Shown piece by piece: positions 2 to 28,947 of a stretch of DNA of 64,000 nt (positions within the stretch are counted from its first letter, which is position 1; each line of letters begins with the position of its first letter). Both the position numbers and the translations under genes were made by a program. The DNA is from Acidobacteriota bacterium (GTDB lineage: Bacteria; Acidobacteriota; Vicinamibacteria; Vicinamibacterales; CAVVIG01), in the NCBI GenBank assembly GCA_016195265.1, contig JACPZW010000062.1, forward strand, positions 9,904 through 73,903. The letters run 5' to 3'. The notes beneath the pieces were generated by a model. It was not told where the DNA came from, ran no database searches, and saw only the letters and a program-made list of their open reading frames with translations.

Positions 2-655
2 GTCCTCGGGCACCTGGTCGGCACGCTCGCGGACGCCGACATCCCGGTGATCGACGGTATCGTCGTGACGCCGGCCGAGGACGAGCTGAAAGCATTCTCG
101 GCCGCGGTCGCCTCGTCCGGCCGCGTCGCCTTGTTCCACATGATCGGCGTGACCCCGGAAGCGCCGACACTCGGCGCCGCCTTTCAGGGTCGCGCGCCAG
201 AGCGCGCGATCGACATCACGACCGCGGATCTTCGCGCGGCGCGCACGGCACTGACGACGGCGGACGGCCGCGAACTGGATATGGTGATTCTCGGCAGCCC
301 GCATTTCTCGCTGGCGGAGTTCGCGCAGCTCGCGCCGCTCGTCGCGGGCCGGCGCGCGCATCCGCGCGTGAAATTCCTGATTACGTCGAGCCGGCTCATG
401 AAAGAAGACGCCGCGCGCGCCGGCGTCCTTGCACCCATCGTGGACTTCGGCGCGCAGATCACGCTGGACACGTGCATCCTCGCGTCGCCGATGCTGCCGC
501 CGGAGGTGAGGACCTTGATGACCAACTCGGCGAAGTACGCGTACTACGCACCGAGCCTGCTGAACACGCGCGTGACGTTTGGAAGCCTGGACGACTGTGT
601 GCAGTCGGCGATCGAGGGTCGCGTGGTGCGCGACGAGCGTGTATGGAACGCGTGA
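2..655 (+). CDS. Aconitase X catalytic-domain protein (DUF521 family), 5' end outside the window
   Basis: The frame is open from the window edge to TGA at 653-655. The C-terminal region (HMIGVTPEAP, ILGSPHFS, ITSSR, DTC) looks like DUF521/AcnX large subunit. It overlaps the downstream DUF126 gene, as in two-subunit AcnX. Confidence 0.65.
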   Translation, partial: VLGHLVGTLADADIPVIDGIVVTPAEDELKAFSAAVASSGRVALFHMIGVTPEAPTLGAAFQGRAPERAIDITTADLRAARTALTTADGRELDMVILGSPHFSLAEFAQLAPLVAGRRAHPRVKFLITSSRLMKEDAARAGVLAPIVDFGAQITLDTCILASPMLPPEVRTLMTNSAKYAYYAPSLLNTRVTFGSLDDCVQSAIEGRVVRDERVWNA

Positions 656-1059
656 TCGCGGGCCGCGCGGTGGTCGCCGGCGAGGCCGAGGGGGAGGCGC
701 TCGTCACGCGCGATGCGCTGTCGTTCTGGGGCGGGTACGATTTCGAGAGCGGCGAGATCATCGACCGCCACCATCCGCTGGCCGGCGTCCGCGCGGCCGG
801 CCGGATCCTGGCGGTGCCGTTCAGCAAGGGATCGTCGACGACGACGGCCGTGCTGCTCGAGGCGGTGCGGGCGGGGACGGCGCCGGCCGCCATCATCACG
901 ACAGGTCCGGACTCGTTCTTCGCGCTCGCGTCGATCGTGGCCGAGCTGATGTACGCCCGATCGTTTCCCGTCGTTGCCCTCGATGCGGAGGATTTCGCGT
1001 TGCTCCAAACAGGCGAGCGGCTGTCGATCACACGCTCAGGAGAGATAAGAAGAGCGTAA
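643..1059 (+). CDS. Aconitase X swivel-domain protein (DUF126 family, small subunit)
   Basis: ATG at 643 overlaps the upstream stop. Recognisable sequence: GEAEGEALV...LSFWGG, PLAG..L..PFSKGSSTT, AIIT. Confidence 0.7.
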   Translation: MERVIAGRAVVAGEAEGEALVTRDALSFWGGYDFESGEIIDRHHPLAGVRAAGRILAVPFSKGSSTTTAVLLEAVRAGTAPAAIITTGPDSFFALASIVAELMYARSFPVVALDAEDFALLQTGERLSITRSGEIRRA

Positions 1060-6063: not shown

Positions 6064-7110
6064 GTGAAGATCGCAGCCGTCCAAGCGTGTCCGGTGTACA
6101 TGGATCGCGACGCGACGGTCGCCAAGGCCTGCGACCTCATCGCGCAGGCCGGCGCGGCGGGCGGCTCGCTCGCGGTCTTTCCCGAAGCCTTCGTCCCGGG
6201 ATATCCGGTCTGGTCCTGGTTCGTCCCCGCGGGCCAGACCCACGCGCTCCGCACGATGTACGCGGAGCTCGTCGCCAACGCCGTCACCGTTCCGAGCGCC
6301 GCGACCGATCGACTGTGCCAGGCCGCGAAGACGGCGGGCGTCACCGTCGCCATCGGCATCAACGAGCTGAACGCCGAGGCGAGCGGAACAACCGTTTACA
6401 ACACGTTGCTCTATATCCGGGCCGATGGCGCCATCCTCGGCAAACATCGCAAGCTGATCCCCACCGGCGGCGAACGCCTCGTGTGGGCCTGGGGCGACGG
6501 CAGCGATCTCGCCGTCTATCCGACGCTGGTCGGCCGCGTGGGCGGTCTGATTTGCTGGGAGAACTACATGCCGCTCGCGCGCTATGCGCTGTCGGCGTGG
6601 GGCGCGGAGATTCTCGCGGCGCCGACGTGGGACCGCGGCGAGCCGTGGCTCTCAACGATGCGACACTCGGCGAAGGAAATGCGGTGCTACGTCGTCGGCT
6701 GCTGCAGCGCGATGCGCAAAGACGATGTGCCCGATCGATTCGCGTTCAAGAAGGATTTCATGAGCGGCGTCGACGGATGGATCAATCCCGGCGACAGCGT
6801 GATCGTGAATCCAGACGGCAAAATCATCGCGGGCCCCGCGCGCGAGCAGGAGACGATCCTCTACGCGGACGTGGATCCCGCGATGATCTCCGGGCCTAGA
6901 GGGCAGCTCGATGTCGCAGGCCACTACGCCCGGCCCGACGTCTTCGAGCTGATCGTCCATCGCCAGCCGAAGCCGTTGATCTCGATGGTGTCGGGCCCGC
7001 AGGAGAGCGACACCAGGTCGCCGAAGGCACCGACGCTGGCGGAACTGAAAGAGGGCGTGCGGCGCGACGTCAAGAGACGCCGTGCGCGCTCGCGACCTCA
7101 GGCTCGATGA
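6064..7110 (+). CDS. Nitrilase / cyanide hydratase family carbon-nitrogen hydrolase
   Basis: Glu-Lys-Cys triad contexts FPEAF, HRKLIPT and CWENYMP. GTG start. Confidence 0.85.
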   Translation: MKIAAVQACPVYMDRDATVAKACDLIAQAGAAGGSLAVFPEAFVPGYPVWSWFVPAGQTHALRTMYAELVANAVTVPSAATDRLCQAAKTAGVTVAIGINELNAEASGTTVYNTLLYIRADGAILGKHRKLIPTGGERLVWAWGDGSDLAVYPTLVGRVGGLICWENYMPLARYALSAWGAEILAAPTWDRGEPWLSTMRHSAKEMRCYVVGCCSAMRKDDVPDRFAFKKDFMSGVDGWINPGDSVIVNPDGKIIAGPAREQETILYADVDPAMISGPRGQLDVAGHYARPDVFELIVHRQPKPLISMVSGPQESDTRSPKAPTLAELKEGVRRDVKRRRARSRPQAR

Positions 7111-7712
7111 TGTCGAAAGGCTCTGACGTGAAACTGCGGTGGGCGCTCGTGGTGATGGGGATGTGGCTGATGGGCACGATCGCCACGTCCGTCGTGGCCA
7201 CCGAAAACTTCTACACCGTCGACCGCATGTTGGCCGCGTCGACGAACGTCCAGTTCTCCAAAGACGTCCAGACGCTCGGCCATCCGCAGACGCGAGAGCT
7301 GCTGCGGTACCTTTCGTCGGAGCTCAATCGCCTGTACTTCAGGATCTGGAACGTCGCGCAGCTCGTCATCGGCGGACTCGTCCTCTGGTTGATTGCCGGG
7401 TCTACAAAGCAAGGCCCGGCCTACATATCCATTCGTAGGGCGGGTTCTTTTGGACCCGCCAGCCTCGTCATCGCGATGCTGGCGGTCGTCGTCGTGATGC
7501 TCGCGTATCTGACGCCGGCGATCGTCTCGCTCGGGCGCGAGCTCGATTTCGTCCCGCACGATCCCGCGCCGCCCGGGATGTCGCGCTTCTGGATTCTGCA
7601 CGCCGCCTACACGACGCTCGCCGATCGAGTACGTGAGTCCCCGCACTGTTCACGACCTTCAGGTAATGGCGCGCCTGAGGCCCGGCGTGACGTTCGCCGA
7701 CGCGCGGCGTGA
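7107..7712 (+). CDS. Multi-pass membrane protein, C-terminus probably non-native
   Basis: ATG overlaps the nitrilase stop. Hydrophobic segments are present. The last ~30 codons read through an ABC-permease relic in another frame. A REP doublet is inserted between transmembrane segments. Confidence 0.5.
   Translation: MMSKGSDVKLRWALVVMGMWLMGTIATSVVATENFYTVDRMLAASTNVQFSKDVQTLGHPQTRELLRYLSSELNRLYFRIWNVAQLVIGGLVLWLIAGSTKQGPAYISIRRAGSFGPASLVIAMLAVVVVMLAYLTPAIVSLGRELDFVPHDPAPPGMSRFWILHAAYTTLADRVRESPHCSRPSGNGAPEARRDVRRRAA
7397..7460. repeat. REP-like doublet (family A, degenerate) inside a CDS
   Basis: ...GGCCCGGCCTAC (7413-7424) faces GTAGGGCGGGTTCTTTTGGACCCGCC (7435-7460). It is read in frame as STKQGPAYISIRRAGSFGPA. 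Confidence 0.7.
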
Positions 7713-15745: not shown

Positions 15746-15946
15746 GTAGGCCGGGTCCTTTGGTACGTAGGCCGGGTCCTTTTGGACCCGGCTGTCCGGC
15801 GGGTCCGAAAGGACCCGCCCTACGTACTGCTTTCGGCGGGTCCGGAAGGACCCGCCCTACGTACCACGTGCCAGTTCATCGGCCGCAACGGGCAGATCCT
15901 GCTGACGAACGCGAATGACGTGTAGGCTGGGTCCTTCGGCCCCGGC
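15746..15946. repeat. Cluster of five REP-like elements, family A
   Basis: Copies at 15746-15763 (truncated), 15765-15792, 15796-15825, 15835-15864 and 15922-15946. Each is GTAGG + CCGGGTCC-loop-GGACCCGG or its reverse complement. Confidence 0.85.
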
Positions 15947-17738: not shown

Positions 17739-17796
17739 GTAGGCCGGGTCCTTTCGGACCCGGCTGAACCGGCGGGTCCAAAAGGACCCGCCCTAC
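17739..17796. repeat. REP-like inverted doublet, family A
   Basis: GTAGGCCGGGTCCTTTCGGACCCGGC (17739-17764) and CCGGCGGGTCCAAAAGGACCCGCCCTAC (17769-17796) lie between convergent genes. Confidence 0.85.
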
Positions 17797-21280: not shown

Positions 21281-22278
21281 AAAACGTCACGACGACCGCG
21301 GCCGCCGCGAGCGCCCTCGACCCCGCGCTGCTCGCCCGCATCGCCGACCTCGAGCTGGTCGCGCGAATCATCGTCGAAGGTCTCGTCTCCGGCCTGCATC
21401 GCAGTCCGTTTCACGGCTACAGCGCCGAGTTCAGCCAGTACCGGCACTACCGGCCCGGCGACGATCTCAAGTACGTCGACTGGAAGCTGGCGGCGCGGAC
21501 CGATCGCTTCTACACGAAACAGTTCCGCGAGACGACGAACATGGCGGCGACGCTCGTCGTGGACACGAGCGCATCGATGGACTTTCCGTACGTAGGCCGG
21601 GTCCTTTCGGACCCGGCACGACTCACAAAGTTTCGCTATGCCGTTCTCGCCTCCGCCGCGCTCGCACATTTGATCTCGAGGCAGGGCGACGCCGTCGGAC
21701 TCGTCGCCGCCGGCGGACGTTTCATCCCGCCGCGCACCGGGCGCCAGCACCTGCGCGGGCTGCTCGCCGCGCTGGGCGATCTTGGCGGGTCCAGACCGCC
21801 TTCGCCAAGGCTACGGTGGTCCGCCGAAGCTTTACGCGGAGGCGGAAGGACCCGCCCCACGGAATCCGGCCCCCTCGCGTGGGACGGCACGGAGACCATC
21901 CGCCGCGCGGCCGATCGCATGACCCGCCGCGGCCTGCTGCTCGTGCTCTCGGACTTCTACGACGACGAGGAACGCGCGTTCGCGGAGTTGCGGCGGGCGG
22001 CGCGGATGGGACACGAGGTCGTGCTGTTCCAGATCCTGAGCCGTGACGAGATCGAGTTTCCCTACAAGAGCGATTTCGAGTTCACGGATCTCGAGACCGG
22101 ACGGTCGGTCGCCGTCAACGCCGCCGTCGCCCGACGCAAGTACAGAGATGAAGTGGCGGCGTTTCTCGAACGCTGGCGCAGCCGCGCCGGCGCAGAGGGC
22201 TTTCAGTATTCGCTGATCGTCACGGACACGCCAATTGAGCGCTCGCTTCGAAGTGTTCTGCTCGCACGGGGAAATTAG
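21277..22278 (+). CDS. DUF58 domain protein (MoxR partner)
   Basis: GTGA overlap with moxR. Contains YRPGDDLKYVDWKLAARTDRFYTKQFRE. Carries two repeat-derived in-frame inserts. Confidence 0.8.
21588..21617. repeat. REP-like element, family A, inside a CDS
   Basis: TACGTAGGCCGGGTCCTTTCGGACCCGGC is read as YVGRVLSDPA. Confidence 0.8.
21784..21856. repeat. Palindromic element, family D, inside a CDS
   Basis: GGCGGGTCC...GGCTACGGTGGTCCGCCGAAGC...GGACCCGCC. A related copy in reverse orientation lies at 56416-56458. Confidence 0.6.
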
Positions 22279-23635: not shown

Positions 23636-25679
23636 CGAGCGCCTCATCCGCGACACGATCGACGCCGCACGGCGCCGCGCGGGTGTGCTTGCCGCAGCCG
23701 AGGCGGCCGCCTGGGGAGCGGCGGTCGCGGCGATCTGGCCCATCGGCGGCGCATTGGTTGCGCTGGCCCTCGCGTTCTGGCGATCGCGATCGGTTGGACG
23801 CCCTGCCGTCGTCCGCGCGCTCGAGCGCACTCATCCTGACGCCCGCAACCTGTTGATCACCGCCGACGAGCTGGCGAGCGGTGTGATCGGTAGGCCGGGT
23901 CCTTTCGGACCCGGCAACCTCTCCAACGTCAAGCCGGAGATCCGCGACCGTGTGTTCGCCGACGCCGCCGCGCGGGCGCGGCAGGTCGATCTCCGTCGCG
24001 CGTTCCCGTTCACGCCGCTCGTGCGCTCCGTGGCGGTCGCGTCCGTGGTGTGGATCGTGGTGGCCGCGCGAAGGCCGATATCGCGCGTGACGCTTTTCGA
24101 TCAGTCGGCGTCCTCAGCGTTCACGACAGTCGCGCCCGGTGCGCTGCGCGTGACGACGACGATTCAACCGCCGGCGTACACCGGATTGGCAGGGACGACC
24201 CTGGTCGATCCGGCGCAGCTTCAGGCGATCGAAGGCAGCACGCTCACGATCTCTATTGAGTCGCCTGCGGCCACGCTCGCGTTGGAGCAGGACGGCGCCT
24301 CGCGCCCGCTCGCGCGCGCGTCCAATGGCCGATTCGCCGATCGCGTGGCGCTGACGAAGACGGGCTATCTCCTCATCACGGGCGACGATGGCGCGCGCCG
24401 GCTCATTCCGGTCGTCGTCTCGCCGGACGCGCTGCCGGCGGTGAAGCTGACGGCGCCCGGCCGCGATCTGCGATACGCGTCTGGAAATCCGAGCCTCACG
24501 AACATTGCCATGGAGGCGCGCGCGACGGACGACTTCGGTCTGCGGACGCTGGCGCTGCGCTACACGAAAGTGTCGGGTTCAGGCGAGCAGTTCGACTTCG
24601 AGGAAGGCGAGCTGCCGCTCCGTGTGACGCGGACGAACGCGCGCGACTGGACGGGCAGCGTCTCGCGATCGCTCGCGGACCTGAATCTGAAAGACGGCGA
24701 CATGCTCGTCTACCGCGCGGTCGCGTCGGACGCGCGGCCCGGCGACGGCAGCGCCAGCTCGGACGCGTTCTTCATCGAGATCTCGAAGCTCGGCGCGGCA
24801 GCCGGTGATGCGTTCACGCTGCCGGAAGAGGAAACGAAGTACGCGCTCAGCCAGCAGATGCTGATCATGAAGACCGAACGCCTGACGAATCAGCGCTCCG
24901 CGATGACGTCCGGCGATTTCGGCGAGGCCGCGCGGAATCTGGCCGTCGAGCAGCGGATGATTCGCGCGGAGTTCGTGTTTATGCTCGGCGGTGAGGTCGA
25001 AGACGAGGACGTCGAGGCCGCGCGGTCGAACGAGCTGCAGGAGGGCCGGCTGCAGAATCGCGGGCAGCGCGACCTTCGCGCGGCGACCGTGGCGATGAGT
25101 CAGGCCGAGAAGCTGCTGACCGGCGCCAACACGACGGACGCGCTGACGGCCGAGCGCGCGGCCGTCTCGGCGCTGCAGCGGGCGTTCTCGAAGGACCGCT
25201 ACATCCTGAGAGCGCTCGGCGCCAGGAGTCAGCTCGATCAGACGCGGCGGCTGACCGGCAACTTGTCGCAGGCCGCGGACTGGCGTCGCGTCCCGCCGGA
25301 TCCGGCGACGGACCGGCGTCTCGCGCAGACCGGGGATCTGCTGCGCGGGATCGCCGAGTTGGCTGCGGCGGCGGACGCGCGCGATTGGCGATCGCGCGCC
25401 CTCGTGCTGGCGGAGCAGGCGCTGCGCATCGATCCGGCGTCGGCATCGCTGCGGCAGATTGCGACGGACCTGCAGCGCGCGGCAGACGCGGCCGACGCCG
25501 CCCGCTCGAGCGCGCTCGCATCGGCTGCGACCGCGGCCGCCGACGAGGCGCGCCGGGCGCACGCCGGCGGCACGCTCGCGACGCCCATTGTCGCGCCGGC
25601 GCTGAGCGGCGCCTTCGCCGATGCGCTGAATCCCGCGGCGTCCGGCTCCAGCCGGACCGCTCCGAGCGTGAAGCGATGA
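23625..25679 (+). CDS. Large membrane-anchored hypothetical protein of the Bat-like operon
   Basis: 684 aa. It overlaps both neighbours (translational coupling) and has N-terminal transmembrane segments. Confidence 0.6.
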   Translation: MSPDERLIRDTIDAARRRAGVLAAAEAAAWGAAVAAIWPIGGALVALALAFWRSRSVGRPAVVRALERTHPDARNLLITADELASGVIGRPGPFGPGNLSNVKPEIRDRVFADAAARARQVDLRRAFPFTPLVRSVAVASVVWIVVAARRPISRVTLFDQSASSAFTTVAPGALRVTTTIQPPAYTGLAGTTLVDPAQLQAIEGSTLTISIESPAATLALEQDGASRPLARASNGRFADRVALTKTGYLLITGDDGARRLIPVVVSPDALPAVKLTAPGRDLRYASGNPSLTNIAMEARATDDFGLRTLALRYTKVSGSGEQFDFEEGELPLRVTRTNARDWTGSVSRSLADLNLKDGDMLVYRAVASDARPGDGSASSDAFFIEISKLGAAAGDAFTLPEEETKYALSQQMLIMKTERLTNQRSAMTSGDFGEAARNLAVEQRMIRAEFVFMLGGEVEDEDVEAARSNELQEGRLQNRGQRDLRAATVAMSQAEKLLTGANTTDALTAERAAVSALQRAFSKDRYILRALGARSQLDQTRRLTGNLSQAADWRRVPPDPATDRRLAQTGDLLRGIAELAAAADARDWRSRALVLAEQALRIDPASASLRQIATDLQRAADAADAARSSALASAATAAADEARRAHAGGTLATPIVAPALSGAFADALNPAASGSSRTAPSVKR
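23889..23915. repeat. REP-like element, family A, inside a CDS
   Basis: GGTAGGCCGGGTCCTTTCGGACCCGGC is read as GRPGPFGPG. Confidence 0.8.
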
Positions 25680-27745
25680 CTCGTCTGGTTCCGCGCGCGA
25701 TTGCCATCGCCATCGCCGTCGCCGGCCTGGTCGATCCCGCGATCACTCTGTCCGGCTCAACACGCGCGCGCCTGGCGATTGTCCAGCTGGATCCGGCGGG
25801 TCCAAAAGGACCCGCCCTACATGCCACCGCTGACCCGGCGGGTCCAAAAGGACCCGCCCTACATGCCACTGCTGACCCGGCGGGTTCAAAAGGACCCGCC
25901 CTACATGCCACCGCTGACCCGGCGGGTCCAGGTGATGCCGCCACTCGAGCCCGAGATCGGCTCTCGCGTGACCTTAGCTCGTCGTTCGAGATCGTTCCGC
26001 AGATCACGTCGGATGCGGCAGCCGCGATCGTGGTCGGCGACCGGTATCCACGCGAGTCCGTTCCCGATGCGCTGCGCGTCGCGACCGTGACGACGGCACC
26101 GGCGGCCATCGGCGTGCCCTTTGTCAAGATTGTCAGGATCGACGCGCCGCCTGAGGTTCCGCCTGGCACCGCGATCCATATCGTGGCCGAGATCGAGGGC
26201 TCCGGCGTCGCCGGCCGGACAAGCGACGTGCGCGTCTCGATCGCCGGGATTGACATGGGCCGCGCGTCGCACGTGTGGACGGCGGCGCGCGAGCGATGGC
26301 GCGCATCATTCGACGCCGTTCCGGTCGGCGATCCGCCGTACGTCGTCCGCGTTGCTGGCGACGACGTCCGCGCGGTGGTGGTCGACGCACGCCGCCGGCC
26401 CTTGCGCGTCGAGGTCTACGAGCCGCGGCCGTCGTGGGCGTCCACGTTCGTGCGCCGGGCGCTCGAGGCCGACCCGCGCTTTCAGGTCGCGAGCGTCAGC
26501 GTGACGTCGCGCGGGATCGCGTCCCGCGCGGGTGACGCCGTGTCGCTCGCCGATCCCCGGCTCGACGCCTCCGACGTCGTCGTGATCGGCGGCCTGGATC
26601 GGCTGACCGCCGCGGACGCCCGGGCCCTCGATCGCGTCATGCGTGAGCGCGGCGGCGCTGTCGTGCTCCTTCCGGATGCGCGCCTCGACGCCGGTCCGGC
26701 GCGCGATCTGATCCCCGTCGAGTTGAAGGAGCGATTGCTGGAGCGCCCGACGAAGCTCGCGACGAGGGCGCCGTCGCCCCCGTTCGAGGCGTCGGAGTTG
26801 TTGGTTCCAGATCCGCGGTACGTAGGGCGGGTCCTTTCGGACGCGCCTGATCAGGATCCGCGATACGTAGGGCGGGTCCTTTCGGACCCGCCTGATCAGC
26901 CGGGTCCGAAAGGACCCGGCCTACAAATCGGGACTCTTTTGGACCCGCCTGATCAGCCGGGTCCGAAAGGACCCGGCCTACAAATCGGGACTCGACTGCC
27001 GGGTCCGAAAGGACCCGGCCTACTCGACACGATCGCGAGCACTCGACCCGCCCAGCAGATCATTGCGAGCACGACCGGCGACGATGCCGCGCCGGTCGTC
27101 GTGTCGGTCCCGCGCGGCTACGGGCGGCTCGTGTGGTCCGGCGCGATGGACGCGTGGCGCTTCCGCGCGAACGACGATGGCGCGTTCGATCGGTTCTGGC
27201 AGTCGACGATTGCCGGGCTTGCGCTGCAGGCGCCCGCGCCGATCGATGTGCGCGTCGAGCCTTCGTTTCTCGAGCCGCGCGAGACCGGCGACGTCATCGT
27301 CCGCCTCCGATCGCGCCCCGTGGGCGACGCCCCGCCTGTCAGCGCGGCGGTTGACGGCACACCGATCCGGCTGCGGCCCGATCCTGAAGCCGGCGTTTTC
27401 AGAAGCACGTTCATCGCGCGCGACACGCCCGGCCTTTCGCGCGTCGACGTTCGCGTCGACGGCACGAGTCCGCAGTCCGCGTCCGCGACAATCGTCGTCG
27501 AGAACGACGCGCATCGCGTCGATCCCGGACTACGCGCGGCGCTCTCGATGCTCGCGACGTCGCACGGCGGCATCGACGTCACGCCCGATCGCATCGACGC
27601 GATCGAGCGGTGGGCAAGCGCGACGGTCGCCGCCCCGACGACAACCGTCCGCCGATATCCGATGCGGTCGGCCTGGTGGATCGCTCCGTTCGCCGCCTGT
27701 TTGGCGGGTGAGTGGTGGATGCGCCGCCGCGCTGGACAGCGCTGA
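25676..27745 (+). CDS. Large hypothetical protein with N- and C-terminal membrane anchors, last gene of the Bat-like operon
   Basis: ATGA overlap with the upstream gene. Transmembrane segments at both ends. Contains two REP arrays read in frame. Confidence 0.6.
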   Translation: MTRLVPRAIAIAIAVAGLVDPAITLSGSTRARLAIVQLDPAGPKGPALHATADPAGPKGPALHATADPAGSKGPALHATADPAGPGDAATRARDRLSRDLSSSFEIVPQITSDAAAAIVVGDRYPRESVPDALRVATVTTAPAAIGVPFVKIVRIDAPPEVPPGTAIHIVAEIEGSGVAGRTSDVRVSIAGIDMGRASHVWTAARERWRASFDAVPVGDPPYVVRVAGDDVRAVVVDARRRPLRVEVYEPRPSWASTFVRRALEADPRFQVASVSVTSRGIASRAGDAVSLADPRLDASDVVVIGGLDRLTAADARALDRVMRERGGAVVLLPDARLDAGPARDLIPVELKERLLERPTKLATRAPSPPFEASELLVPDPRYVGRVLSDAPDQDPRYVGRVLSDPPDQPGPKGPGLQIGTLLDPPDQPGPKGPGLQIGTRLPGPKGPGLLDTIASTRPAQQIIASTTGDDAAPVVVSVPRGYGRLVWSGAMDAWRFRANDDGAFDRFWQSTIAGLALQAPAPIDVRVEPSFLEPRETGDVIVRLRSRPVGDAPPVSAAVDGTPIRLRPDPEAGVFRSTFIARDTPGLSRVDVRVDGTSPQSASATIVVENDAHRVDPGLRAALSMLATSHGGIDVTPDRIDAIERWASATVAAPTTTVRRYPMRSAWWIAPFAACLAGEWWMRRRAGQR
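25793..25929. repeat. Three tandem 42-bp units, each containing a family A REP, plus a partial fourth
   Basis: CCGGCGGGTCCAAAAGGACCCGCCCTACATGCCACCGCTGAC occurs three times, with 1-2 substitutions in the second and third units. It is read as DPAGPKGPALHATA x3. Confidence 0.9.
26819..27023. repeat. Array of five full and one partial family A REP copies in both orientations, inside a CDS
   Basis: Forward copies at 26819-26847 and 26865-92. Reverse copies at 26899-26936, 26956-26993 and 26999-27023. Read as YVGRVLSD.. and QPGPKGPGLQIG.. Confidence 0.9.
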
Positions 27746-27748
27746 AGC

Positions 27749-27841
27749 AACTACCCAACTACCCAACTACCTAATTACCCACTTACTCAGTTCGATCGGT
27801 GTGATTGATTGGGTAGTTGAGTAAGTGGGTAATTGGGTAAT
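27749..27841. terminator. Word hairpin (TTACCCA/TGGGTAA words) between convergent genes
   Basis: Left arm 27749-27789 and right arm 27806-27841 are reverse-complementary arrays of 7-8-nt words. Confidence 0.55.
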
Positions 27842-27852
27842 GGCTCCGGCGC

Positions 27853-28824
27853 TCAGAAGCCGTAGAGCCGTGCCGGATTGTCCACCAGGATCGTCCTGCG
27901 CTGCGCGGCGTCCGGCACCCAGGTCGGAAGCAGGTTGAACACTCTGCCGTCGTCGATTTGCCGGAGCGGCGTGATGTCTGTGACCTTGCCGCCAATCACC
28001 CGAGCACCCGGATGCGGCCAGTTCGTCCCCCAGACGAGACGCTCCGGATTCGCCGCGAGGAGCGCTTTCGCAAGCGGCGCGACATCCGGGTAGTCCGGCG
28101 CCTGCGTCGATGAAAGATACGGCGCGGAAATCTTGACGTACGCGTGACCCGTGCGAACGAGATTCACCAGCGTCGCGAAGCCGGGTTGCTGAATGCCGAG
28201 CGACGCCTGCGCGCCGCCGAAGTGATCGAACACCACGCGAACGGCAGCGCCGGCGACGAGGTCGCTGATGGCCTCGATCACGCTCAGCCGCGTATAGATT
28301 TGAATGTGCCAGCCGCGAGCTTTCATCCGCTCCGCCGCGCGTTGGAAACGCTGCCGGGCAATGGCGGGATCCGTGACGCCCGTGGTTTCCAAATTGAGAC
28401 GGATCCCTCGAATGCCCGCGCGAGACATTCCATCCAGCATCGGGTCGGTGGTGCTGTCGTCGATGACGGCGACGCCACGGGCGCTCGAGCCGAGCTGCCT
28501 GAGCGCATCGAGCGTGCAGGCGTTGTCGGTGCCGTACACGCTGGGCTGAACGATGACCACGCGGCTCGTGCGCAGCGCTCGATGCAGGGCGCGGATTTCG
28601 GCGACCGACGCCGGCTCCGGCGTGTACGTGCGATCGGGTGCGAACGGAAAGCGCGCCGAACTTCCGAAGATGTGCGTGTGGCAATCGCACGCGCCCGGCG
28701 GCACGTCGAAGCTGACCTGTGTCGCCGGTTGTGACGCCTTGGCGAACGCCGACGCGGCGCGTCCTGCGAACGCCGCCGCGCCGGCCGCTGCCGCCCCGAC
28801 GAGCACATTGCGCCGCGATATCAT
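27853..28824 (-). CDS. Amidohydrolase-2 family metal-dependent hydrolase with a Tat signal
   Basis: SRRNVLVG twin-arginine motif and CDCHTHIF metal-binding motif. ATG at 28824 is preceded by GGAGG; an alternative ATG lies at 28863. Confidence 0.75.
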   Translation of the reverse strand: MISRRNVLVGAAAAGAAAFAGRAASAFAKASQPATQVSFDVPPGACDCHTHIFGSSARFPFAPDRTYTPEPASVAEIRALHRALRTSRVVIVQPSVYGTDNACTLDALRQLGSSARGVAVIDDSTTDPMLDGMSRAGIRGIRLNLETTGVTDPAIARQRFQRAAERMKARGWHIQIYTRLSVIEAISDLVAGAAVRVVFDHFGGAQASLGIQQPGFATLVNLVRTGHAYVKISAPYLSSTQAPDYPDVAPLAKALLAANPERLVWGTNWPHPGARVIGGKVTDITPLRQIDDGRVFNLLPTWVPDAAQRRTILVDNPARLYGF

Positions 28825-28894: not shown

Positions 28895-28947
28895 CATTAC
28901 CCAATTACCCAATTACCCAACTACCCACTTACCCAATTCAACCGATA
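28895..28947. repeat. One-armed TTACCCA word array
   Basis: CATTACCCAATTACCCAATTACCCAACTACCCACTTACCCAATTC has no local complementary arm. It is followed by the AT-rich ATATATATAAAAGG before the ATG at 28959. Confidence 0.7.

Follow-up and report, generated by a model that had tools for sequence, protein, structure and literature searches.

Can a cluster of mobile palindromes be a genuine part of a protein-coding gene and, if so, how did it come to lie there? The question is raised by a 64,000-nucleotide (nt) stretch of DNA, referred to as the window, from an Acidobacteriota bacterium of the order Vicinamibacterales (assembly GCA_016195265.1, contig JACPZW010000062.1, positions 9,904 to 73,903). 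The window has a G+C content of 67%. A gene on its + strand at 25676-27745, encoding a membrane-anchored conserved protein of 689 amino acids (aa), carries two clusters of repetitive extragenic palindromic (REP) sequences, here called site 1 (25795-25932) and site 2 (26810-27066). REPs are short palindromes moved by a transposase, the REP-associated tyrosine transposase (RAYT). The evidence presented below makes it probable that at site 2 a REP dimer was tolerated in a surface linker of the protein and was locally amplified under the constraint of the reading frame, so that it now encodes a disordered loop.

Site 2 is a mosaic of REP units in both orientations

The original prediction, made from the letters of the sequence, had described five full REP copies and a partial one, in both orientations, within an unbroken frame at 26819-27023. 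Pattern searches and the sole open frame bear out this description and the location, but the limits were too short; the array is about 50 nt longer and covers 257 nt (26810-27066, + strand). A 26-nt GTAG-tagged palindrome is present in it in five complete copies and two partial ones; the GTAG head stands on the left in two of the full units (head-left) and on the right in three (head-right). The general head-left pattern is GTAGG[G/C]CGGGTCC-NNNN-GGACCCG[C/G]C. At site 2 the head-left units read GTAGGGCGGGTCC-TTTC-GGAC(G/C)CGCC, and the three head-right units, identical to one another, read GCCGGGTCC-GAAA-GGACCCGGCCTAC, end in CCTAC and are nearly the reverse complement of the head-left form.

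Unit 1 (26822-26847) is head-left, of the x=G type, with one stem mismatch (GGACGC). Unit 2 (26867-26892), of the same orientation and type, lies in the second copy of a 45-nt repeat and forms a tail-to-tail dimer with unit 3 (26899-26924; head-right, x=C type) via the palindromic tail CTGATCAG, which links the units. At 26936-26949 the loop and right arm of a head-left unit form a half unit, with which the second copy of a 57-nt repeat begins. Next come the head-right units 4 (26956-26981) and 5 (26998-27023), the latter 42 nt beyond the former. The decayed right end of a head-right unit of the x=G type (GACCCGCCCAGC, 27045-27056) has a copy of the conserved flank on either side, ATCGCGAGCAC at 27032-27042 and ATTGCGAGCAC at 27062-27072. 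Two tandem duplications are evident, one of 45 nt (26810-26854 and 26855-26899, 96% identical) and one of 57 nt (26879-26935 and 26936-26992, 98% identical), and the step of 42 nt from unit 4 to unit 5 is the third. Of the six reading frames, that of the host gene alone runs through 26810-27066 without a stop codon. In this frame the array encodes most of an 86-aa linker, PDPRYVGRVLSD...PAQQII, which exceeds the usual 11 residues by about 75.

The units belong to a REP family of the Vicinamibacterales

The unit is G+C-rich, with a 9-bp stem and a 4-nt loop, and every full unit begins with GTAGG or ends with CCTAC. The core GGGTCC-N4-GGACCC, with at most two mismatches, occurs 16 times in the window as against 0.09 expected from shuffled sequences. 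Inverted tail-to-tail dimers are found at 15767-15823 and 17739-17796, and also at the orthologous site in locus L005 (loci from other assemblies are given by L numbers). In species-representative GTDB genomes, the exact pattern was present in more than 100 stretches among the matches listed, nearly all of them from Vicinamibacterales or Acidobacteriota metagenome-assembled genomes (MAGs). The depth of the REP core in the source metagenomes was about 300 times that of unique flanks, with the whole community counted. A search of Rfam gave no match above the gathering score; the best was BjrC174 (34.9 bits against a gathering score of 45) and the others were generic hairpins.

A candidate source transposase was seen in one locus, which belongs to a related genome. 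L053 encodes at 191-664 (- strand) a protein of 157 aa that matches PF01797, the IS200-like Y1_Tnp domain (E 4e-12), and has the HVH and Y-x-x-x-N-P motifs. Within L053 1-930 this RAYT-like gene has arrays of the same REP on both sides; in one of these, three head-left units repeat in tandem every 41 nt, and a head-right unit comes after them. As judged from sequence, the gene and its REPs have the layout expected of a RAYT. Among the other loci no RAYT gene was found.

The host gene is continuous across the array

The original prediction had placed the copies inside one ORF; this ORF proved to be a real gene and not split at the array. The gene was defined by its homologs, by two alignments (A1 and A4), by synteny and by AlphaFold2 modelling. 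It is the last gene of an operon with the order MoxR-type AAA, DUF58, BatA, DUF4175 and host gene, an order kept in L001-L006, and its start codon overlaps the stop codon of the DUF4175 gene (ATGA). At E <= 1e-5 the host protein has 375 homologs, most of the listed ones being 565-600 aa long. Both sides of the array are covered by homolog alignments, and more than 100 homologs cross the site uninterrupted. All invariant residues of the family are present in the window protein, the family alignment including this protein by construction. At the DNA level, the BLAST alignment to orthologs stops at about 26805/26850 and restarts at 27060. A split gene, an internal start and a terminator were each considered and are ruled out by the continuous homologs and by a promoter and terminator scan, in which no promoter-like sites were found within the host gene and terminator-like matches were at the chance level.

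The AlphaFold2 model of the host protein, built with the family alignment, had a mean predicted local distance difference test score (pLDDT) of 81.3 and a predicted template modelling (TM) score of 0.71. The pLDDT fell below 50 solely at residues 44-79 and 386-456, which correspond to the two REP arrays; the adjoining elements scored above 90. The site-2 insert is thus predicted by the model to be a disordered surface loop or linker. The array shows the sequence features by which a GTAG-type REP cluster and an in-frame palindromic insertion are recognised.

Searches of Pfam and NCBIfam with the host protein gave zero matches. A fold search was tried as a guide to its function and set aside, since it gave weak multi-domain similarity only (whole-chain TM-scores up to about 0.34), to a subunit of the oligosaccharyltransferase complex and to Ig-like/CARDB domains.

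A second array lies in the same protein

The original prediction had overlooked the second array in the same ORF, as well as the habit of REPs to enter genes across this lineage, which has been published for other bacteria. The site-1 array (25795-25932, + strand) consists of three head-right units (25795-25820, 25837-25862 and 25879-25904) and a half unit (25921-25932) with a period of 42 nt, and encodes (D)PAGPKGPALHATA repeats. Orthologs have a single unit at this site and distant homologs have none. The site-1 linker is 58 aa long in the window protein as against 13-14 aa.

Orthologs record insertion, expansion and decay at site 2

The linker at site 2 was measured in alignment A4 (119 sequences) from the conserved SELLV strand to the next conserved strand. 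Nearly all of about 110 distant homologs have a linker of 11 aa; in the eight closest homologs (P0002-P0009) it measures 14-48 aa, and in the window protein 86 aa. The DNA at the site was compared in nine orthologous or partial loci; a metagenome scan gave six loci, two of them cut at the array. A clean tail-to-tail REP dimer is present in L005 and L117, and in L002 a trimmed dimer forms one perfect palindrome of 49 nt. L001 has a partial unit and three units. Only the outer ends (GTAGGCCG...CCGGCCTAC) are left in L006, which has an internal deletion, and L003, L007, L008 and L119 hold decayed copies. The right boundary, CTAC-ANNNC-ATCGC, is common to all orthologous site-2 loci. The idea in the original prediction that the segment could recombine receives indirect support from these orthologs, which vary in copy number and dimer orientation and include one internal deletion.

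The spacings between units of the same orientation were also compared. Within the host gene, all seven are multiples of three (42, 42, 45, 57 and 42 nt; 42 nt in L001), and elsewhere 3 of 14 are; next to the RAYT gene the units recur every 41 nt. These spacings show selection acting to keep the frame intact. The spacings are not independent events, so this evidence is supportive and amounts to no formal test.

A probable account: a tolerated dimer amplified in frame

These results can be joined into the account that we consider probable. A tail-to-tail REP dimer, that is, a REP doublet forming a hairpin (REPIN), would have entered a short surface linker in an ancestor of this Vicinamibacterales subclade. 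It could persist as coding sequence because each orientation offers at least one stop-free frame, giving VGRVLSDP from one and GPKGP from the other, and because the site tolerates extra residues. In the lineage of the window, the dimer would then have been amplified by the tandem duplications of 45, 57 and 42 nt, in an order that can be proposed, with duplication of the right flank as well; slippage or a hairpin-mediated process may have produced them. Only length changes in multiples of three would survive, since the gene must stay intact. The proposed outcome is the 257-nt mosaic and a Pro/Gly-rich loop predicted to be disordered, with expansion in the window and in L001 and trimming or decay elsewhere. 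The array would be mainly a tolerated passenger rather than an adaptation.

Several observations weigh against this account. The 64-kb window is without any RAYT gene. The exact copy number comes from a short-read assembly, and no single read or contig spans the array. The orthologs differ in the orientation of the dimer, and the intragenic REP units show more conservation than is expected of a neutral passenger. The last two points were analysed further.

The dimer is asymmetric: its two units differ at one position of the stem, with G in the one and C in the other. It is of the (G,C) type in the window, L005 and L117, of the (C,G) type in L001, L007, L008 and L119, and of the (C,C) type in L002 and L006. 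The (C,G) type is the exact reverse complement of the whole (G,C) dimer, and the window itself retains a decayed right end of the (C,G) type beside the conserved flank. In a neighbour-joining tree of ungapped codons, which is star-like, L005, L007/L119 and L002 fall in one subclade, and at least one change of orientation must therefore have taken place in it. A single insertion followed by simple duplication is hence not the whole history of the site. Possible causes are an in-situ inversion between the GTAGG/CCTAC heads, excision and re-insertion by RAYT, and repeated insertion at a hotspot; the (C,C) forms could be due to template-switch correction.

The head-right unit is identical at 26 of 26 positions in the window, L002 and L005. 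The genes of these three differ at 16-22% of aligned codon positions, and four-fold degenerate sites of the orthologs differ at about 39% on average, so that about 4-6 differences per pair of head-right units are expected. This slow divergence would be accounted for by any of three processes: selection acting on the hairpin, gene conversion by other copies in the genome, or displacement of the units by fresh ones.

Both observations may be read together. The intragenic dimer could be active or maintained, flipping its orientation, being homogenised and changing its copy number, and staying translatable because both of its orientations are open. We regard this as a conceivable but rather doubtful extension. 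If so, a REPIN lineage can stay alive within coding sequence, and new disordered protein segments would be a regular product of REP turnover in this phylum. A literature search on orientation flips of REPINs or on REPs of Vicinamibacteria returned nothing relevant.

Folding potential and possible selection on the nucleic acid

The original prediction also held that the segment could form long, alternative hairpins within the coding region, and structure prediction agrees with it. The RNA of 26800-27040 folds into a near-continuous hairpin of about 100 bp with a minimum free energy of -159.5 kcal/mol, compared with -98.2 +/- 4.6 for shuffled sequences (z -13.4). The same segment folded as DNA gave a z of -12.7. 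Hairpins of the single units would, on such modelling, be the obvious co-transcriptional alternative. The original prediction further suggested that the hairpins could affect translation or mRNA stability; a search of RNA runs found the locus in none of them.

This very stable predicted fold raises the possibility that the palindromes are kept by selection on the nucleic acid, either as an RNA hairpin (ribosome pausing or mRNA protection) or as a DNA site for RAYT, gyrase or other REP-binding proteins. The coding-compatible frame would then be the mere price of residence within a gene. The GAAA loops of the head-right units, which would be of the GNRA type in the mRNA, and the slower divergence of the units relative to the surrounding gene point in the same direction. 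So do the synonymous sites at site 1, where 5, 5 and 6 of 7 orthologs retain the rare A/T-ending codons GGT, CCA and GGA, respectively, against a background of 13% A/T at four-fold sites; L006 shows a compensatory change (GGGCCC/GGGCCC). The sites and lineages are too few for this synonymous-site test for selection on the hairpin to be more than suggestive. However, L003, L006, L007, L008 and L115 have kept the gene although their units are decayed or lost by deletion, and since the number of copies varies between 0 and more than 5, no particular structure can be necessary. Known REP stabilisers act between genes, whereas this array is internal to the operon's last gene, and gene conversion from the many genomic copies would give equal conservation. 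Selection on the nucleic acid is thus an unlikely reason for the presence of the array.

REP-bearing proteins and the possibility of an adaptive linker

A further explanation is that the REP-encoded peptide is an adaptive linker of variable length, whose copy number would set how far the two flanking domains reach or how widely they are spaced, as at a contingency locus. Two linkers of the same protein are expanded, at site 1 and at site 2, and both expanded segments are Pro/Gly-rich and predicted to be disordered. The neighbouring genes of the operon also hold in-frame REPs (all + strand). The DUF4175 gene has a single unit at 23890-23915, encoding GRPGPFGPG. In the DUF58 gene, a single unit at 21592-21617 stands directly past the DTSASM motif and encodes YVGRVLSDPA, and a composite REP, also in frame, occupies 21784-21856. 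Altogether, 10 of the 16 REP cores of the window and the composite element are intragenic, all in genes of this one operon.

The length of 11 aa is almost invariant in the distant homologs, which argues against a need for variation. The same REP also stands in frame in unrelated enzymes, as expected of an opportunistic, tolerated insertion. In other Vicinamibacterales genes, whose identities were confirmed by Pfam, in-frame copies were found in a DnaE-type polymerase (three units inside HHH_6, L077 1266-1359), a biotin carboxylase, two paralogous Ser/Thr kinases (at the same position), a peptidase M13 (a dimer), glycosyltransferases and a spermidine-synthase-domain protein. Besides the L077 units, the coordinates of these copies are L079 2875-2890, L088 2615-2630 and 5433-5448, L091 1213-1289, L101 1222-1237 and 3447-3462, and L015 1784-1799. 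Over all loci, 177 of 210 cores were classed as non-coding by a heuristic based on ORFs and the G+C content of third codon positions. The intragenic fraction of 7-16% is only rough, because the strict form of this classifier overlooked known intragenic copies. Finally, polymorphism of linker length within a population was not seen in the short contigs, which break in repeats. An adaptive role of the linker is therefore judged to be quite improbable.

Assembly support for the array

Support for the array was sought in public sequencing runs, five of which, all from groundwater, hold at least 40% of the sampled words of the locus. The runs were available as short contigs (Logan, k=31-style) that break inside the repeat. 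Exact contig matches cover 26300-26890, 26907-26965, 26955-27022 and 27000-27500, in three or four independent groundwater runs each; the duplication junction 26907-26965 was matched by exact contigs in three runs at genome-like depth. The depth of the array contigs, about 4-13, equals that of the unique flanks, and the generic REP core reaches about 3700. Each array-specific junction is thus supported by exact contigs at flank-like depth, and the junction depth agrees with a single traversal and hence with two copies of the 57-nt unit. The copy number of the array is well supported, not proven. In run X5, from another groundwater study and a strain about 95% identical, a contig of flank-like depth joins 26847 to 26954 via GGA; it may represent a shorter allele of the array or another REP locus. 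The repeat joints seen in contigs of the runs derive mostly from other REP loci.

That the exact copy number and order of the mosaic are an assembly artefact due to a repeat with hundreds of copies in the metagenome, and the real locus a simpler REP dimer, is suggested by an array that probably exceeds the typical short read, by contigs that break within it, by the excess depth of the REP core and by the X5 joint, but is highly unlikely given the exact junction matches and the single-traversal depth, a reading frame that an artefact would rarely keep, and orthologs, assembled independently, that have from one up to three and a half REP units in this position.

Other repeats and neighbouring genes

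The composite REP of the DUF58 gene has normal REP arms, GGCGGGTCC...GGACCCGCC, around a palindromic loop of 55 nt. In the window the loop encodes ...SPRLRWSAEAL... and adds 51 nt, or 17 aa, in frame. The composite element was also found in L001 (8168-8240, in the DUF4175 gene), L013 and L075; four loci, two of which are intragenic, appear to harbour a second small element in the REP loop. REPs with loops of 28 nt were seen in L065 and L097.

Outside the operon, a REP cluster without a coding-like open frame lies at 15767-15860 and consists of the dimer mentioned above (15767-15823) and one more unit, with a spacing of 37 nt. The dimer at 17739-17796 is placed between two convergent ORFs. A single unit (7435-7460) lies inside the ORF 7107-7712, a putative gene of 201 aa with no Pfam match that is flanked by a CN-hydrolase gene and a HAD-hydrolase gene.

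In orthologous loci, the REP-bearing gene is directly followed by an opposite-strand gene of 267-272 aa with no Pfam match (L001 11886-12692; L002 11781-12599; L003 11715-12518; L005 2033-2836). The window lacks this gene at 27745-27853, where a heptamer inverted repeat stands alone. Runs of the heptamer (A/T)TTACCC, richer in A+T, occur at 27755-27842 and 28895-28935. The former run makes a long inverted repeat in the gap on which the REP-bearing gene and an amidohydrolase gene converge, and the latter lies in the divergent region ahead of a transglutaminase-like gene. These runs probably represent a different family of intergenic repeats, or else a bidirectional terminator.

Discussion

At the site-2 locus, the 11-aa linker, the REP dimer and its expansion or decay form an unusually clear series, which gives a view of how mobile palindromes can make disordered loops. 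It also has practical consequences. REP arrays in MAGs of high G+C content can be genuine coding sequence, which calls for caution in annotation, and genes with REP arrays break short-read contigs, which calls for caution in assembly.

The bacterial interspersed mosaic elements (BIMEs) of E. coli are extragenic as described. The REPINs of Pseudomonas, attributed to Bertels and Rainey in 2011, are reportedly REP doublets that form hairpins and are likewise said to be extragenic. The array of the window resembles both in its mosaic of alternating orientation, its short conserved linkers, the dimer as the apparent basic unit, a cognate RAYT and long persistence at orthologous sites. It differs in that the cluster lies within a protein-coding frame, with spacings that appear from the sequence to be held to multiples of three.

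Rickettsia palindromic elements (RPEs), which Ogata and co-workers are said to have described in 2000, are the classic example of in-frame insertion; they are reportedly mobile palindromes that lie in frame in conserved genes, at surface positions of host proteins that stay functional. RPE-1 is about 100-150 bp long, A+T-rich and usually present in single copies, and no RAYT is known for it. The REPs described here are, like RPEs, palindromic mobile repeats in frame in a conserved protein gene, with an insert predicted to be at the surface. In contrast to RPEs, the units are of 26 nt, G+C-rich, tandemly multiplied and in both orientations, and there is no sequence relationship between the two.

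The closest parallel is found in the GTAG-tagged REP families of Di Nocera, De Gregorio and Rocco (2013, BMC Genomics 14:522; PMC3733652), which comprise RAYT genes flanked by repeats, head-to-head and tail-to-tail dimers, and clusters. A minority of these REPs lies in frame within real genes, and more than half of such inserts are dimers or groups encoding 20-30 aa (PMC3733652). Clusters encoding 43-82 aa were reported in Thauera and Rickettsia conorii, some ORFs were hit twice, DnaE/DnaE2 were among the cases, and the authors suggested that the inserts lie in flexible linkers or loops (PMC3733652). The elements of the window share with these families the short G+C-rich GTAG palindrome, the dimers and clusters, the association with RAYT and the in-frame minority, and the REPs in the DnaE-type polymerase of L077 echo the DnaE/DnaE2 cases. 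The REP sequence here and its host lineage, the Vicinamibacterales of the Acidobacteriota, were not matched to any of the families of that paper. The in-frame decoration of proteins by REPs is extended to uncultured members of this order, here an acidobacterium of soil or groundwater. The 86-aa linker, most of it encoded by the array, is at or slightly above the largest reported cluster and thus among the largest of such arrays, and a second array stands in the same protein. The ortholog series, moreover, presents dimer, expansion, trimming and decay at one and the same site. In-frame REP insertion was thus already known; what is new here is the phylum, the size of the array together with a second one, the ortholog series with its changes of orientation, and the slow divergence of the units.

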